Positions 24,034-28,801 of a stretch of DNA of 64,000 nt are shown piece after piece (position 1 is the first letter of the stretch; the number at the start of each line of letters is the position of its first letter). The DNA is from Chlamydiia bacterium (lineage in GTDB: Bacteria; Chlamydiota; Chlamydiia; Chlamydiales; 2-12-FULL-49-11). The notes below the pieces were generated by a model that made no database searches, was not told the origin of the DNA, and saw nothing but the letters and a program-made list of their open reading frames with translations. The stretch is from assembly GCA_022601435.1 (NCBI GenBank), contig JAJACQ010000004.1:102-64101 (forward strand), read 5' to 3'. Both the position numbers and the translations under genes were made by a program.

Positions 24034-25053
24034 TTATCGGAACTTTGGATCCAGGTAACCAAGGGTATAGGCTCCTTCAATATTTGAGCTAAAAGCAGCT
24101 AAGTTTTTTGAATGAACGTGAAGATTATTTATACGATAGCGTTTTCCTTTATAGATTAGATAAGGTATTCGTCGATTTTTATTATCTAGTTTCCATTCGT
24201 ATTTAAAATGGTAGGGATTAAAGATACATCTTTCGTTTATAAACCCCGCAGCATATTGAACATGTGTACCTGCCAGATATTGACCTAGAGCTGCTGCATC
24301 AAAGACAGAATTAAAAAATTCAATGTTAGTATGAAATAGACTTTTATCATGTGCTCTATGTTTATGGTAGCTTTCTAAAATTTTTCGGTCATTTGCATAT
24401 TCAGAAGGAATGATAGGAAGTGGGGCTATTAAGTGGGGTTTTGCTCTTCTAAAATGTATGGGTGTTTCCATATCTCCCCAATTTATATGCGAGGTTTTTG
24501 CTGCAAATGCAGCATATTCTCTCATAGCCTCTTTAGTTTTAATATACATAAAACCGCATACACAGTGACCATCATTATCCATTGTAAATCCAATTCCTTG
24601 GTATTTTTCTGTGAAGATATGAAGTATAGTACTTAAGTCAACATAGATCATATTATCATGCTCCATGTGAAAAACATTGATTTCATTATATTGTGTCATG
24701 AAGTCATGTAGGTATAATAAACGCTCGCTATATCTACACCAATCATGAAGGGCTAAATTCTTCTTCCAAGCAACATGTTCAGGGGTCATTTTTAAGTCTT
24801 CTAAATTTATATATGAAATATTTTGGTTTGAGTATTCGGGGTTGAATTTACTAAACGCTTCTTTATTTCCTAGCATGTAAATAGGGCAGTCTGGATTCAT
24901 TAAGCGAGCTTGGTAAAGAGCAAGTTCAACGGTGGCCGGAAACTTTTTACCAATATGTACAAAAATAATGGAATGTTGAGCTTCTATAAATTGAAAAAAA
25001 GAGATGATGAGCCCGAAGAATACATACTTGAAATTATTGCTTAGATAGTTCAT
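24034..25053 (-). CDS. Putative glycosyltransferase with N-terminal membrane anchor
   Basis: 339 aa. Anchor YVFFGLIISFFQFI. RYSERLLYLHDFM...VFHMEHDNMIY resembles the GT32-like region around a DxD motif. Weak family call. Confidence 0.55.
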   Translation of the reverse strand: MNYLSNNFKYVFFGLIISFFQFIEAQHSIIFVHIGKKFPATVELALYQARLMNPDCPIYMLGNKEAFSKFNPEYSNQNISYINLEDLKMTPEHVAWKKNLALHDWCRYSERLLYLHDFMTQYNEINVFHMEHDNMIYVDLSTILHIFTEKYQGIGFTMDNDGHCVCGFMYIKTKEAMREYAAFAAKTSHINWGDMETPIHFRRAKPHLIAPLPIIPSEYANDRKILESYHKHRAHDKSLFHTNIEFFNSVFDAAALGQYLAGTHVQYAAGFINERCIFNPYHFKYEWKLDNKNRRIPYLIYKGKRYRINNLHVHSKNLAAFSSNIEGAYTLGYLDPKFR

Positions 25054-25087
25054 ATTGTTCCTATGTGTTTTAGAAAATAGAGTTTAT

Positions 25088-26050
25088 ATGAAGTTATTTT
25101 TTTTAAAAAGGTATTTATTAGCTTCTCTTTTTAGCTTATCTTTTATTTTTTCAAACCCATCAGAATGGGACTTAATTTACAAGAAAGTAAATTTAAAAAA
25201 TCCTAGTAATCAAGATATGGAATTAATTCAAGACTACTTACATCATGGACGACGTATTTATTTAAGGTGGCTTGATTTTATTTGGACTGATAAGGACAGA
25301 AGTGATGGGTTGCGTTATGATAAAAGAGCAAGAAGAATGCACATCTGGAGAGGTAATAGAAATGATTTGCTTATGCGTAAAATAGTTTATAATACAACTC
25401 GTAATGACAAAGACGTTTGTATAATTACATATGGAAGCTTTAATAAGTCATATACAGATAAAATAGATTTGATTGATAGTCGTTTAAAAGACATTAATTT
25501 TAAAGGTCATTTTTTGTTTAGAATGGGTGGATGGCCTGATATTGAGGGTGGATCTTTAAAATATATACATGTTCCATATAGTTTTAAGTTGTGTATGATT
25601 AAAGAAGCGATGCGATTAGGATATAAAAAAATTGTCTGGATTGATACTGCTGTTGTTCCTTTAGAAAATTTTTTAAGGGTCTTTGAAATTCTGGATGAAG
25701 ATGGTTATTTTCTGATAGACCATACGACGCTTGCTAAGGCACATGTAACAGAATCCGTAGTTAAAGCTTTTAATTTAACAACTAAAGAGATGAATAGTAT
25801 AAATGAAATTCAAGCATCAATGATGGCTTTTAATACTGAATCTGAAAAAGCTCAAAATTTTATAGCTGAATGTTTTTCTTATTTAGATAGTTTGGATGCT
25901 TATTTATCTCCTAGGCCTGAGCAGGTTGCAATGGGAATTATTGGAACAAGGCTTGGAATGAAGTTTAGGTTACCTTTTGTCCAAGTATTTCGAGATGATA
26001 TTCCTATTGAAAAAGCTGATAAATCATTGTTTTATTTATTAAAAAGATAA
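25088..26050 (+). CDS. Putative nucleotide-sugar-dependent transferase with N-terminal anchor
   Basis: ATG 25088 (MKLFFLKRYLLASLFSLSFIF). KKIVWIDTAVVP is a DxD-like segment. No firm family. Divergent from 24034-25053 with a 34-bp gap. Confidence 0.5.
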   Translation: MKLFFLKRYLLASLFSLSFIFSNPSEWDLIYKKVNLKNPSNQDMELIQDYLHHGRRIYLRWLDFIWTDKDRSDGLRYDKRARRMHIWRGNRNDLLMRKIVYNTTRNDKDVCIITYGSFNKSYTDKIDLIDSRLKDINFKGHFLFRMGGWPDIEGGSLKYIHVPYSFKLCMIKEAMRLGYKKIVWIDTAVVPLENFLRVFEILDEDGYFLIDHTTLAKAHVTESVVKAFNLTTKEMNSINEIQASMMAFNTESEKAQNFIAECFSYLDSLDAYLSPRPEQVAMGIIGTRLGMKFRLPFVQVFRDDIPIEKADKSLFYLLKR

Positions 26051-26977: not shown

Positions 26978-27933
26978 TGAATCTTAGGTGTAGGTGGGTA
27001 TCTTTATTTGTTTTATTTTTTTGTTTTGTGTACTCTGATGAATCGGCTGTCGCTTATCATTTTAGTTCAGGCAGGTTTGGTGATAATCTATTGACGTATC
27101 TGCATGCAAAATGGTTTTCCTATAAAACAGGTTCTCATGTTCTTTATCAGCGATTCCCATATAGTGATATGTTAAAATTAAGTGAGATTGAAAAAGTTGG
27201 GGGTGAATATTCTCAGTCTGCATGGCTTTGTGAAACTGATGATCCTGTTTCTTTTTTTAAAAAGGTTAGTTCTACAGGGTCTACAGTATTTCATATAAAG
27301 TATTTTCCGGAGCTTTCATGGGGTGGGGAATGTTTAAATATAAAACCAAAATTTCATATCAATTGGGATGACCCTGAGTTTAATAAATTGATTAGATCTT
27401 CTATAACTCCGAAAGAGAAGTTGAATTATTCAATAGTTCCCCCAAAAGACAAGGTATCGGTTGCAATTCATTTTAGATCCGGGGGGGCCAAAGAGAGAGA
27501 TTTACATCAGAAGTGGCCTCTTAAGGCCCCTAGACTAGAATTTTATATTAAGCAGCTTAAGAATCTATACAGTTTTTTAGAGGAATCTTCTTTATATGTC
27601 TATATTTTTACAGATAGCGATTATCCAGAAGATATCAAGGCAACGTTTAAAAAGATGTTTAAAGGTGATAAAATTCACTTTGATATCTCAAGAAAAATAA
27701 GGAAGTGGAATGATCATGTTTTAGAGGATTTTTTTTCGATGTCTCAGTTTAATTGCTTAATTCATGCAAGGTCAAATTATTCTGTTTGTGCGGGTCTTAT
27801 TTTTGATTTTGATGTTGAAATTTGTCCTATTTCTGATGTAGGGCAAGAAGGGATTGAAAAAATTGATCATGTAGTAATGAGGACACATTTTGATAAAAGT
27901 ATTAAGCCAGAGTATCAGTATGTATCTATGTAG
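26977..27933 (+). CDS. GT11-like (alpha-1,2-fucosyltransferase-like) glycosyltransferase
   Basis: VAIHFRSGG (cf. HxRRGD), IFTDSDYPEDI, and FFSMSQFNCLIHARSNYSVCAGL (cf. GT11 motif IisnSTFSWWaa). N-terminal anchor WVSLFVLFFCFVY. Confidence 0.6.
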   Translation: MNLRCRWVSLFVLFFCFVYSDESAVAYHFSSGRFGDNLLTYLHAKWFSYKTGSHVLYQRFPYSDMLKLSEIEKVGGEYSQSAWLCETDDPVSFFKKVSSTGSTVFHIKYFPELSWGGECLNIKPKFHINWDDPEFNKLIRSSITPKEKLNYSIVPPKDKVSVAIHFRSGGAKERDLHQKWPLKAPRLEFYIKQLKNLYSFLEESSLYVYIFTDSDYPEDIKATFKKMFKGDKIHFDISRKIRKWNDHVLEDFFSMSQFNCLIHARSNYSVCAGLIFDFDVEICPISDVGQEGIEKIDHVVMRTHFDKSIKPEYQYVSM

Positions 27934-28801
27934 ACAACTAATCAATTTTTTTTTAGTATTTATGATTTGTATTTCTTCCTTTTTACATAGTCGACTTTCT
28001 AGCTACCCTTTTATTTCAGGTGATAGTTTTCGTTCAGTGGCAGATTTTATTTATGATGAAGATATTCATAAATTTAATCCAAGAAGAGTTAAAAGGGGTG
28101 ATGTTGTCTTCATAAAAATAGATTATGTAGATGGTTTTTTCAGATGGATACACCCTAGAATTAAACATCCTTATGTGATTATTACTCATAATGGTGATAA
28201 GGCAATTACTAATAAGTATGCTCGATTGTTAAATGATCCTAAGGTTCTTGCTTGGTATGGTCAAAATATAGAGGGAATAGAGCATCCAAAGCTAAAAGCT
28301 ATTCCAATTGGTCTTGCAAATAGGTATTTAAAGCATGGTTCACTTGATATAATAAGGCGATATTTTAAAAATAGAGAGTCTTCAAAAAGAGATAAGCTGT
28401 TATATTTAAATATAAACAGAGGAACTAACAAAAAAGTTAGAAATTATGTGTGTAATTTATTGTTGGATCAACCGTTTACGGTATCGAGATGTGGGGTGTC
28501 GTTTCAACAATATTTAAACGATTTAACTCAATCAAATTTTGTAGCAAGTCCGAGAGGAAATGGACTGGATTGCCATAGGACATGGGAAAGTTTATATATG
28601 GGAGCTATACCAATTGTAGAAAGTTCTTCGTTAGACTATATATATAAGACATTGCCTGTTGTTATTGTTGATGATTGGAGCTTGATTACAGAAGAGTTTT
28701 TACGTGAAAAACTTAATTATATTCATAAGCATAAATATGATTGTTCGATGCTTTATATGGATTATTGGATTAAGGAAATCAGGAAATATAAGCAGCATTA
28801 A
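27920..28801 (+). CDS. Exostosin-like (GT47-like) glycosyltransferase
   Basis: C-terminal SNFVASPRGNGLDCHRTWESLYMGAIPIVESS matches the exostosin-family signature as I recall it. N-terminal anchor INFFLVFMICISSFL. ATG 27920 is preferred over TTG 27890. Confidence 0.6.
   Translation: MYLCRQLINFFLVFMICISSFLHSRLSSYPFISGDSFRSVADFIYDEDIHKFNPRRVKRGDVVFIKIDYVDGFFRWIHPRIKHPYVIITHNGDKAITNKYARLLNDPKVLAWYGQNIEGIEHPKLKAIPIGLANRYLKHGSLDIIRRYFKNRESSKRDKLLYLNINRGTNKKVRNYVCNLLLDQPFTVSRCGVSFQQYLNDLTQSNFVASPRGNGLDCHRTWESLYMGAIPIVESSSLDYIYKTLPVVIVDDWSLITEEFLREKLNYIHKHKYDCSMLYMDYWIKEIRKYKQH

Follow-up and report, generated by a model that had tools for sequence, protein, structure and literature searches.

The window, the whole 64-kb stretch of DNA analysed here, contains an island of five consecutive genes. 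As originally predicted, ORF1 is divergent and the other four genes lie on the plus strand, where ORF3 overlaps ORF4 by 1 nt and ORF4 overlaps ORF5 by 14 nt. The five reading frames are intact, conserved and genuine, and the motifs quoted for them were all found. For ORF2, ORF3 and ORF5, the coordinates in Table 1 follow the internal ATG starts of the contig's public gene calls, with upstream TTG codons as alternative starts.

Table 1 Genes of the island in window coordinates, with predicted products
Gene	Position	Strand	Length (aa)	Alternative start	Predicted product
ORF1	24034–25053	−	339		N-terminal Sec-signal-like segment followed by GT-A fold glycosyltransferase
ORF2	25088–26050	+	320	TTG at 25055 (331 aa)	Unannotated family, candidate glycosyltransferase
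ORF3	26120–26977	+	285	TTG at 26072 (301 aa)	FkbM-family SAM-dependent methyltransferase
ORF4	26977–27933	+	318		GT-B, fucosyltransferase superfamily, remote GT11 relative
ORF5	27920–28801	+	293	TTG at 27890 (303 aa)	GT-B, CAZy GT114

The island had been described as visibly more AT-rich than the core genes. Its GC content is slightly low (0.320 against 0.356 ± 0.026 in the 45 other ORFs of the window), but its GC3 (0.240 against 0.264 ± 0.046 in the same 45 ORFs) falls within the usual variation, and the window has several more regions just as AT-rich. A tRNA-Asn gene is located 2.2 kb upstream of the island. Elsewhere the window carries LpxD and an MsbA-like ABC exporter; neither an acceptor nor nucleotide-sugar genes were found in the 64 kb.

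ORF5 matched the PBCV-1 protein A075L (PDB 8ASA, 8AVQ and 8Q8I) with an E-value of 1.2e-29 over 212 residues, and the two are ~33% identical over the catalytic domain. A075L, the founding member of CAZy family GT114, is a β-xylosyltransferase that transfers Xyl from UDP-Xyl onto O4 of Fuc (PMC11571054). ORF5 also passed the gathering cut-off of Pfam RXYLT1_C (PF24785; 30.7 bits, cut-off 27), the family of the metazoan ribitol-phosphate xylosyltransferase RXYLT1 (TMEM5), with a match of just 59 residues around a PRGNGxDxHR motif. RXYLT1 sits in the membrane in type II orientation, with its catalytic domain in the lumen. The Exostosin_GT47 model (PF03016) scored 21.6 bits, under its cut-off of 33.4. 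The suggestion of an exostosin/GT47-like enzyme thus held insofar as ORF5 is a genuine GT-B transferase, but by sequence it is a GT114 homolog of A075L and not a GT47 member.

A075L has Asp73 as its catalytic base and binds the donor through Asn148, Arg158, Asn202 and Arg208; the equivalent residues of ORF5 are D93, N164, R174, N214 and R220. Four of these positions are invariant in the bacterial family and N214 is present in 19/20. Because these residues are conserved, ORF5 very likely shares the mechanism of A075L, namely an inverting, metal-independent GT-B reaction with a UDP-sugar donor. The Gal-contacting Lys34 and Asp36 are conserved as well, whereas T112 and H122 of the D-rhamnose pocket are not, suggesting that the acceptor of ORF5 is something other than the capsid N-glycan on which A075L acts in PBCV-1. 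Unlike the soluble, cytoplasmic A075L, ORF5 has a hydrophobic N-terminal extension of 25–30 residues, and the neighbours of A075L in PBCV-1 (A071R, A064R and A061L) are unrelated to ORF1 and ORF2. ORF5 has 701 homologs, and its family was counted at 390 genome loci and in 347 viral contigs.

ORF1 belongs to a family without a Pfam model; profile searches gave no Pfam or NCBIfam match, and a sequence-level match to Pfam or PDB families was likewise absent. At least 239 homolog clusters were found, across which H129-E131-D133 (HxExD) and a C-terminal NNLHxHxK motif are invariant. When the AlphaFold model (pLDDT 89.9) was compared with the PDB by Foldseek, it matched glycogenin (1.6e-7) and also XXYLT1, LgtC, Lgt1, SetA and YeGT. 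Judging from this model, ORF1 is a GT-A fold, GT8-clan-like enzyme (E ~1e-7), and its HxExD follows a β-strand at the place where GT8-clan enzymes have DxD; the protein had been listed as a candidate of the DxD type, and the glycosyltransferase assignment stood with HxExD in its place. Its TM-scores to GT8-clan enzymes are just 0.35–0.43, and, unlike them, it has an additional β-rich C-terminal region bearing the NNLHxHxK motif. A retaining mechanism would be expected from the fold neighbours.

ORF4 had no match in the Pfam search, the GT11 model included, and its family consists of ~35 clusters without annotation. It contains the motifs GRFGDN, HFRSGG, FTDSDYP and ARSNYSVCAG, a pattern shared with GT11 enzymes (N-terminal GRFGDN, HxRxGG, FTD and SN(Y/F)S), and R33, G35, D36, H165 and R167 are invariant. 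The AlphaFold model (pLDDT 92.7) was built on P0121, a protein identical to ORF4 except for one amino acid within the signal segment. Its best 38 Foldseek matches in the PDB were all fucosyltransferases, with POFUT1 (GT65; 4.8e-8) followed by POFUT2 (GT68), FUT8 (GT23), AtFUT1 (GT37) and NodZ (GT23), at TM-scores of just 0.42–0.53. By hhalign, ORF4 aligned with a cluster of Pfam-verified GT11 proteins from related loci at a probability of 96.1% (E 2.9e-9) and with a NodZ/FUT8-like cluster at 76%. These comparisons support the proposed GT11 likeness as a remote relationship within the fucosyltransferase superfamily; unlike GT11 enzymes, ORF4 has a signal-like N-terminus.

ORF3 passed the Pfam threshold of the FkbM-type family Methyltransf_21 (36.4 bits, cut-off 22.7) with a match confined to profile positions 102–155, as expected from the FkbM-like core noted before, and scored under the cut-off of TIGR01444. 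A VEFGAMDG motif of the SAM-binding type follows the hydrophobic N-terminus, 12 related bacterial loci carry homologs, and the PDB profile search returned methyltransferases, all of them weak matches. ORF3 is an FkbM-type methyltransferase that probably modifies a sugar hydroxyl. ORF2, the other putative enzyme of the DxD type, matched none of the Pfam and NCBIfam families searched, and hhalign against the neighbouring families gave nothing significant. It has 465 representative homologs at E ≤ 1e-3, with conserved G147, G148, P150, K167, W184 and D186, and its sole, weak PDB match is the Legionella SetA glucosyltransferase domain (E 0.004). Elsewhere this domain occurs joined to GT2, GT10, GT25, GT90 or SAM-methyltransferase domains; ORF2 is probably a glycosyltransferase. 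The glycan-building role foreseen for the island is supported.

The closest related locus has the same five families together in another gene order, at 47–60% identity, inside a larger cluster with two GT10, two GT2, FkbM, DUF268 and PF03407 genes. GT114 has an ORF1-like gene next to it in 38 of 84 loci from bacteria and in over 60 from viruses. Other recurrent neighbours of bacterial GT114 genes are GDP-mannose 4,6-dehydratase (GMD; 14 loci), UDP-glucose dehydrogenase (UGD; 8), GT11 (7), GT6 (5) and NodZ-like genes (5), which are supply routes and enzymes of Fuc/Xyl-type glycans. No flippase, ligase, oligosaccharyltransferase or initiating phosphoglycosyltransferase was found among the recurrent neighbours. 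The gene content resembles the chlorovirus capsid N-glycan machinery (A064R, A061L, A071R, A075L and A111/114R; PMC9614988), in which a fucosyltransferase and a GT114 enzyme of the xylosyltransferase type are combined with additional glycosyltransferases and with O-methyltransferases for sugars; those viruses encode GMD and UGD, as do bacterial relatives of the island. However, GT114 is the only homologous component (hhalign probability < 1% for ORF1 and ORF2 against A071R and A064R), and the chlorovirus enzymes are soluble and active in the host cytoplasm.

Each of the five proteins has a hydrophobic N-terminal segment, as had been recognized; the segments look like Sec signal peptides and not like Golgi-type (type II) anchors. 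Examples are MNYLSNNFKYVFFGLIISFFQFIEA/QHS in ORF1, MKLFFLKRYLLASLFSLSFIFS/NPSEW in ORF2 and MNLRCRWVSLFVLFFCFVYS/DES in ORF4, with the slash at the putative cleavage site. The uncharged stretch is 14–19 residues, comparable to BamA and Skp, with a positive n-region and small residues at −1/−3, and the residues past the putative cleavage site are neutral or acidic. The hydrophobic cores of ORF1, ORF2 and ORF4 are short (13–16 residues). In ORF3 the uncharged stretch reaches 23 residues and lacks a positive n-region if read from the ATG; the longer hydrophobic stretches of ORF3 and, less so, ORF5 could be membrane anchors. A crude home-made rule for signal peptides flagged four of the five island proteins, ORF2 being slightly under the cut-off; in the rest of the window it also picked out BamA, Skp and an L,D-transpeptidase, which are known to be exported, but no protein with an obvious housekeeping role in the cytoplasm.

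The segment is present in 32/34 bacterial homologs of ORF1 and 55/82 of ORF5, indicating a property of the families and not chance; it runs through these families in diderm intracellular bacteria. By lineage, it was seen in 27/34 Chlamydiota, 15/19 Dependentiae and 0/4 CPR sequences. Viral homologs mostly lack it (1/45 and 3/64) and A075L is soluble, which contradicts the idea that such N-termini mark eukaryotic or giant-virus enzymes. In related loci the same extension immediately precedes the canonical N-terminus of GMD and UGD, and one GT2 has a lipobox. Some loci have signal-less and signal-bearing GMD copies together, which is equally compatible with membrane-tethered enzymes of a cytoplasmic pathway.

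One possible interpretation, which we favour tentatively, is that the island is native to a chlamydia-like intracellular bacterium and works as a functional module that makes a short fucose-containing, O-methylated oligosaccharide. One methyltransferase would act in it beside three or four glycosyltransferases of the Leloir type. The GT11-related, inverting ORF4 would put on L-fucose from GDP-fucose, and ORF5, with Asp93 as the base and Arg174 and Arg220 as phosphate clamps, would then use a UDP-sugar to add a β-linked residue; the analogy with A075L makes xylose on the fucosylated intermediate the most likely one. ORF1, the conserved partner of GT114 and a retaining-type GT-A enzyme, would attach an α-linked sugar, ORF2 would probably attach another, and ORF3 would cap a sugar hydroxyl with a methyl group. 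Because all five proteins have Sec-type N-terminal signals, this chemistry would most likely be extracytoplasmic, taking place in the periplasm or in the vacuolar lumen of the host, on an envelope or secreted molecule, with nucleotide sugars and SAM either supplied by the host or exported. The analysis shows the enzyme families, their conserved catalytic residues, the linkage of the genes and the occurrence of the N-terminal segments by lineage; we infer which sugars are used, in what order, on which acceptor and in which compartment, and the donor sugars are read by analogy from distant relatives.

An ordinary surface-glycan pathway (LOS outer core, O-antigen-like chain or capsule), in which the N-terminal helices would tether the enzymes at the inner membrane on its cytoplasmic side and the chain would be built on a lipid carrier and then flipped, seems rather unlikely. 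To our knowledge, this is the established mode of nearly all bacterial Leloir glycosyltransferases; the GMD and UGD genes of related clusters imply that the bacterium synthesizes its nucleotide sugars itself, and signal-less GMD and GT11 copies lie next to extended ones. The long ORF3 stretch and the LpxD and MsbA-like genes of the window would also suit it. However, the charge pattern, with K/R ahead of the segment and neutral or acidic residues following it, favours an N-in/C-out orientation, the cores of ORF1, ORF2 and ORF4 are short, AXA-like cleavage motifs are common, and the lipobox is found on a cluster enzyme. Moreover, genes of the Wzx/Wzy/WaaL type or for initiating transferases do not recur within ±7 kb of 77 loci, and we know of no rationale for a helical N-terminal tether on GMD or UGD, which are soluble. 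The same Sec-like signals could instead serve effectors that leave the bacterium, for example through a type II secretion system, and then remodel host glycans or glycosylate host proteins in the vacuole or host cell, drawing on nucleotide sugars of the host. In fold, ORF1 resembles several GT8-clan enzymes, including the Legionella effectors Lgt1 and SetA and a Yersinia toxin, YeGT. ORF2 weakly matches SetA, intracellular lineages associated with protists are enriched for the families, and many of the partner families in related loci (GT6, GT10, GT11, GT32, PF03407 and DUF268) are typical of eukaryotic glycan synthesis. We consider this improbable: a toxin-like modification would attach one sugar, whereas the conserved multi-enzyme set with a methyltransferase and the signal-bearing GMD/UGD of relatives point to stepwise assembly of one defined oligosaccharide. 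In addition, glycogenin, XXYLT1 and LgtC match the ORF1 fold at least as well as the effectors do, and profile searches showed no secretion-system genes or host-targeting domains in the island.

The original prediction of a host- or virus-derived island of Golgi-type transferases was partly right in that many viral contigs carry the ORF1 and ORF5 families (207 and 347, many of them giant-virus MAGs) and the two are linked there; the closest characterised relative of ORF5 is chloroviral, the GC content is slightly low and a tRNA gene lies upstream. However, in neighbour-joining trees of bacterial and viral sequences, ORF1 and ORF5 fell deep in purely bacterial clades of 28 and 69 sequences (Chlamydiota and Dependentiae), and every viral sequence, A075L included, fell outside. 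The best matches are Chlamydiota/Dependentiae proteins at 45–60% identity, as against at most ~40% for viral ones, and viral homologs lack the N-terminal segment. A pattern scan of the viral contigs did not find the ORF2, ORF3 and ORF4 families, and tblastn gave a few weak ORF2/ORF3 matches near viral GT114 genes. GC3 is ordinary, and no integrase, att repeat, flanking repeat or copy of the tRNA 3′ end was found around the island. A recent acquisition is thus largely refuted and we regard it as highly improbable.

Secretion signals are odd for enzymes that normally act inside the cell, and we know of no cofactor supply in the bacterial periplasm for Leloir enzymes, NAD(P)-dependent dehydratases or SAM-dependent methyltransferases. 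An extracytoplasmic module would have a mechanistic parallel, by analogy only, in Chlamydia trachomatis, which secretes glycogen enzymes into the inclusion lumen and imports host UDP-glucose there (PMC4829429), so that a chlamydial Leloir-type transferase works outside the cytoplasm on a host-supplied nucleotide sugar; unlike the island, that system makes glycogen and exports its enzymes by type III secretion, without Sec signals. The island suggests that a chlamydia-like bacterium has five intact genes for a fucose-type, methylated sugar chain, and their N-termini suggest a Leloir glycosylation pathway that may operate outside the cytoplasm.

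Re-reading the coordinates in the window confirmed five intact ORFs, with ORF2 to ORF5 closely packed on the plus strand and ORF1 diverging from them; for ORF2, ORF3 and ORF5, public gene calls on the same contig start at internal ATGs (see table). The island lies in an ordinary bacterial chromosome segment that also carries the genes for PNPase, RF-1, Ffh, MetRS, RecD2, GroEL, PepF, TyrRS, AccA, pyruvate dehydrogenase subunits, LpxD and BamA. Its AT-richness, part of the original observation, is real but only mild: the GC content is 0.320 versus 0.356 ± 0.026 in the other ORFs of the window, and GC3 is 0.240 versus 0.264 ± 0.046. 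No second copy of the 3′ end of the nearby tRNA-Asn gene was present elsewhere in the window, and neither flanking repeats nor an integrase was found at the island. A recent horizontal acquisition of the island was rejected, as the GC, GC3, repeat and tRNA att-site searches all came out negative. An uninformative promoter and terminator scan returned fewer promoter-like sites than were seen in shuffled sequences.

Coordinates of features in the window and in related loci (L-numbers)
Feature	Sequence	Position	Strand	Remark
Subtilase-family protease (548 aa) and 455-aa protein	window	18596-21705	-	just upstream of tRNA-Asn
tRNA-Asn (GTT)	window	21715-21787	+	2.2 kb upstream of island
Class I SAM methyltransferase	window	22667-23503	+	
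ORF1	window	24034-25053	-	
ORF2	window	25088 (start)	+	internal ATG, 320 aa
ORF3	window	26120 (start)	+	internal ATG, 285 aa
ORF5	window	27920 (start)	+	internal ATG, 293 aa
Three consecutive ORFs (186, 187, 464 aa)	window	29800-32559	+	
Oligoendopeptidase F	window	41733-43631	+	
GMD/UGD	L020	6330-7442		20-30 residue signal-like extension
GMD/UGD	L038	4783-7153		20-30 residue signal-like extension
GMD/UGD	L010	11933-13351		20-30 residue signal-like extension
GMD/UGD	L022	3148-4536		20-30 residue signal-like extension
GT6 gene beside GT114	L048	14051-14809		
A075L, A071R, A064R, A061L	L248 (PBCV-1)	9821-16212	reversed	contiguous
Paralog of A071R C-terminal two thirds	L248 (PBCV-1)	14843-15547		35% identical

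In a phmmer search of solved structures, ORF5 matched A075L, the β-xylosyltransferase of the chlorovirus PBCV-1 (E = 1.2e-29; query residues 81-292 on chain residues 63-282, 212 residues), and tblastn against the PBCV-1 locus gave 33% identity (E = 2e-31). A075L is a metal-independent, inverting GT-B enzyme that xylosylates O4 of fucose in the capsid N-glycan with UDP-Xyl as donor and requires an acceptor containing α-D-Rha-(1-3)-L-Fuc; it founded the CAZy family GT114, its authors having explicitly taken it out of GT47 (PMC11571054). We aligned full-length A075L from the PBCV-1 locus with the bacterial family (20 bacterial homologs). Asp73, the catalytic base of A075L, and its donor-binding residues Asn148, Arg158, Asn202 and Arg208 (roles from PMC11571054) correspond to D93, N164, R174, N214 and R220 of ORF5; N214 is kept in 19/20 aligned bacterial homologs and the other four are invariant. 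Similarity over the full domain and these key residues place ORF5 in GT114. In contrast, T112 and H122 of the D-rhamnose pocket of A075L are not kept, ORF5 having A133 and a deletion instead. As all key residues line up and the rhamnose pocket differs, ORF5 is very probably active as a GT114 enzyme, with A075L-like chemistry, and its acceptor is probably other than that of A075L. ORF5 also scored 30.7 bits with Pfam RXYLT1_C (PF24785; residues 188-246), above the gathering threshold of 27, and the same match is precomputed on nearly all of its homologs. The predicted exostosin/GT47-like identity was not borne out: PF03016 reached 21.6 bits (E = 1.6e-4), below its gathering threshold of 33.4, and the family is reassigned to GT114.

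No significant match emerged when the ORF1, ORF2, ORF3 and ORF4 families were compared with the PDB by sequence profile, and structure prediction alone resolved ORF1 and ORF4. ORF4 had no sequence match in Pfam or the PDB; Glyco_transf_11 (PF01531) was not found even at E ≤ 1 and was present on 0/35 homologs, so that ORF4 is not a GT11 member by Pfam HMM. A confident AlphaFold model (pLDDT 92.7) was obtained for P0121, a protein that differs from ORF4 at one residue inside the N-terminal segment. Another relative of ORF4, P0146, comes from 'Ca. Protochlamydia phocaeensis'. When the model was searched against the PDB with Foldseek, the 38 best matches were all fucosyltransferases (E 4.8e-8 to 2.5e-3), with POFUT1, POFUT2, FUT8, AtFUT1 and NodZ among them. 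In hhalign, ORF4 matched a cluster of Pfam-verified GT11 proteins from related loci at 96.1% (E = 2.9e-9, 225 columns) and a NodZ/FUT8-like cluster at 76%. H165 and R167 of the Arg-containing motif I (HxRxG) are invariant. Fold, motif I and remote homology thus place ORF4 in the fucosyltransferase GT-B superfamily (GT11/23/37/65/68), and the profile-profile match indicates that the GT11-like motifs noticed originally mirror a genuine, remote GT11 kinship. The identity of ORF4 as a GT11-related fucosyltransferase is well supported, with GDP-L-fucose as the putative donor.

ORF1 could not be assigned to a family by sequence; a PF01501 match was absent, so it was not placed in GT8. Its model (pLDDT 89.9) shows a GT-A fold, and the best fold matches, glycogenin, XXYLT1 and LgtC (E about 1e-7, probability 1.0) and also Legionella Lgt1 and SetA, are GT8-clan retaining enzymes. 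H129, E131 and D133 are invariant in the family (HxExD), and in the model this acidic motif, predicted to bind metal and nucleotide, follows a β-strand of the GT-A fold. A fold search of BFVD returned generic GT-A viral matches and no specific named viral relative. We also considered whether ORF1 is a homolog of A071R, the predicted D-rhamnosyltransferase that makes the acceptor of A075L, and whether the ORF1 or ORF2 family is related to A064R or A071R; both were rejected, with hhalign probabilities below 1% and no tblastn match.

ORF2 belongs to a large, unannotated family (465 representatives) with a single invariant Asp (WxD). Pfam, NCBIfam and significant PDB matches were absent, and its weak matches were SetA (E = 0.004) and, from 1/38 family members, GT8 (E = 0.006). 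Comparison with 24 neighbour-gene families by hhalign gave nothing significant, the best being DUF6492 at 4.8%. Elsewhere the ORF2-type domain occurs in fusions with GT2, GT10, GT25, GT90 or methyltransferase domains, which supports a role of ORF2 in glycan synthesis; a glycosyltransferase fold is putative. ORF3 scored 36.4 bits with Pfam Methyltransf_21 (FkbM; cut-off 22.7), covering only profile positions 102-155 of 173, and 21.4 with NCBIfam TIGR01444 (cut-off 37.7); a VEFGAxDG motif is conserved in its family. The identities of ORF4 and ORF5 are well supported, ORF3 is probably an FkbM-type methyltransferase, and the identity of ORF1 is supported at the level of its predicted fold. The proposed glycosyltransferase identities are real for ORF4, ORF5 and, by fold, ORF1, and putative for ORF2.

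The giant-virus connection that had been suspected is also real, as seen from the A075L match and from IMG/VR, where 347 contigs carry the ORF5 family and 207 the ORF1 family, many of them giant-virus MAGs. ORF1-like GT-A and GT114 genes adjoin each other in more than 60 viral loci (L165-L244, e.g. L173 and L165). In bacteria, an ORF1 homolog was found within 10 kb of the GT114 gene at 38/84 loci, often directly adjacent. That the two genes adjoin in bacterial and viral loci alike marks the GT-A/GT114 pair as a two-enzyme unit conserved between bacteria and giant viruses. FkbM-like genes were seen in a few of these viral loci, and a pattern scan of viral contigs gave no confirmed relatives of the ORF2, ORF3 and ORF4 families. 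In PBCV-1, the glycan genes are contiguous and A071R is directly adjacent to A075L; a paralog of the C-terminal two thirds of A071R lies at the same locus.

Crude neighbour-joining trees of bacterial and viral sequences put the sampled bacterial ORF5 (69) and ORF1 (28) sequences into one pure clade each. The ORF1 and ORF5 of the window were deep inside these clades and all viral sequences, including A075L, were outside; identities were 45-60% to bacterial homologs and at most about 40% to viral ones. With its genes in pure bacterial clades, an ordinary GC3 and no repeats or integrase, the island is not a recent foreign acquisition.

Relatives of ORF5 were detected in 390 of 185,579 representative bacterial genomes. 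The best 80 of the 390 were mostly Chlamydiota (Parachlamydiales, Rhabdochlamydiaceae, Waddliaceae) and Dependentiae/TM6, together with a few MAGs labelled Pseudomonadota, CPR, Aerophobetes or Verrucomicrobiota. The best ORF5 identity was 48%, so the species of the window is not among the representative genomes. Within 10 kb of the GT114 gene, homologs of ORF4, ORF3 and ORF2 occurred at 31, 12 and 3 of the 84 bacterial loci, respectively. At the closest relative (L011), all five families are side by side in a changed order, in a 14-kb cluster with two GT10, two GT2, a second FkbM, a DUF268 and a PF03407 gene. When all the genes up to 7 kb on either side of GT114 at 77 bacterial loci were clustered, the recurrent neighbours were DUF6492 (21), GDP-mannose 4,6-dehydratase (GMD; 14), GT32 (13), GT2 (11), FkbM (10 plus 7), UDP-glucose dehydrogenase (UGD; 8), GT11 (7), GT6 (5) and NodZ-like (5); a flippase, polymerase, ligase, oligosaccharyltransferase or initiating transferase did not recur. 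GMD opens the route to GDP-fucose or GDP-rhamnose and UGD that to UDP-xylose; their recurrence is consistent with a Fuc/Xyl-type glycan and parallels the chlorovirus glycan toolkit. GT6, the family of the ABO blood-group transferase, was represented beside GT114 at L048 and four other loci, labelled Dependentiae and Pseudomonadota, by genes with signal-like N-termini (Pfam E = 3.5e-44). The subtilase-family protease (Peptidase_S8) upstream of the tRNA gene and the accompanying 455-aa protein, which has no family match, were not recurrent near GT114 genes of other genomes.

The hydrophobic N-terminal segments in the window combine one or two K/R with 14-19 uncharged residues in a row and small residues at -3/-1, followed by a neutral or acidic region, and in this are similar to the signal peptides of BamA, Skp and L,D-transpeptidase. 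By a home-made rule that also flags these three proteins, ORF1, ORF2, ORF4 and ORF5 show the features expected of a Sec signal peptide (a positive n-region, an h-region of about 7-15 residues, small residues at -3/-1); the segment of ORF3 is ambiguous and more anchor-like. The segment was present in 32/34 bacterial versus 1/45 viral ORF1-like proteins and in 55/82 bacterial versus 3/64 viral ORF5-like proteins, and was absent from all copies in the more than 60 viral loci with the adjoining pair. Among GT114 homologs it was found in 27/34 of Chlamydiota, 15/19 of Dependentiae and 0/4 of CPR. A075L has no hydrophobic N-terminus. A Golgi-type anchor in common with viral relatives, as originally envisaged, is therefore contradicted by the viral proteins themselves. 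Since the viral homologs lack the segment and Chlamydiota and Dependentiae carry it, the segment is a trait of diderm intracellular bacteria, not an inheritance from viruses.

In the related loci, a similar extension precedes nearly every cluster enzyme. Textbook examples are MKKLCVAILLYSFFFPLNA ahead of EHV on a GT10 and MKKNLLFIITFILISSIQA ahead of SEP on an ORF1-like protein; a lipobox is present in one GT2. On GMD and UGD, the extension abuts the canonical Rossmann N-terminus, and Pfam matches start at residues 24 and 30; at L038, a signal-less GMD copy adjoins the extended one. Sec-signal-like N-termini were also seen on two other proteins of the window, a class I SAM methyltransferase (Methyltransf_11, E = 1e-23) and oligoendopeptidase F (Peptidase_M3). 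Such methyltransferases and oligoendopeptidase F are normally cytoplasmic.

The most economical reading of the island is the stepwise assembly of a short fucosylated, O-methylated and probably xylosylated oligosaccharide. Where this would take place depends on the segments. According to the textbook rule, bacterial Leloir glycosylation is cytoplasmic, and a conservative alternative is that the segments tether the enzymes by their N-termini at the cytoplasmic face of the membrane; as mere tethers, they would leave an ordinary, poorly annotated surface-glycan cluster. The sequence features of the segments and their distribution among lineages favour Sec export instead, which would bring Leloir enzymes, and in relatives also NAD(P)- and SAM-dependent ones, outside the cytoplasm. 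Secreted effectors aimed at the host are another possibility. An extracytoplasmic location is plausible only if host metabolites reach that space; a comparable case is C. trachomatis, which secretes glycogen enzymes and imports UDP-glucose (PMC4829429).

Taken to its full extent, export would mean that a complete Leloir glycosylation pathway, fed by the host, runs outside the cytoplasm of obligate intracellular diderm bacteria (Chlamydiota, Dependentiae and some Pseudomonadota), with the five enzymes of the window as one instance; we regard this as a tentative, rather unlikely proposal. Such a pathway would comprise nucleotide-sugar conversion by GMD and UGD, glycosyl transfer by GT114, its GT-A partner family and GT11-, GT10-, GT6- and GT32-type enzymes, and SAM-dependent methylation. 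Its site would be the periplasm or the lumen of the host vacuole and its supplies host nucleotide sugars, NAD(P) and SAM, so that these bacteria would in effect have an equivalent of the Golgi lumen. Three consecutive ORFs that lie immediately downstream of the island have no Pfam family on record; the 187- and 464-aa proteins have similar N-termini (SEIQTIISTYPSFEELP and SQIQTLISNYNRLEIP), and the latter combines a hydrophobic block in its interior with a long tail rich in Ser, Thr and Asp. The three look like Inc-type or mucin-like proteins and, given their position, could be candidate glycan acceptors.

The island represents a bacterial glycan cluster in a new form that is poorly annotated. 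GT114 was defined in 2024 and, to our knowledge, its bacterial members are uncharacterised; that they travel with a conserved, unannotated GT-A partner, a GT11-related fucosyltransferase and methyltransferases provides a concrete enzyme set. The literature searched held nothing relevant on exostosins or fucosyltransferases in Chlamydiae or on signal-peptide glycosyltransferases in Dependentiae, and we know of no description of surface glycans of this type for environmental chlamydiae and Dependentiae. A fucosylated, xylosylated and methylated glycan could affect recognition by, or evasion of, protist hosts. The most unusual feature of the island and its relatives, and the most consequential one, is that export-type signals are systematic on enzymes that need cytoplasmic cofactors, in related loci even on GMD and UGD, and this is worth following up. 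If these enzymes do act outside the cytoplasm, the textbook rule would change, and energy parasites would have a new route by which to exploit the metabolites of their hosts.
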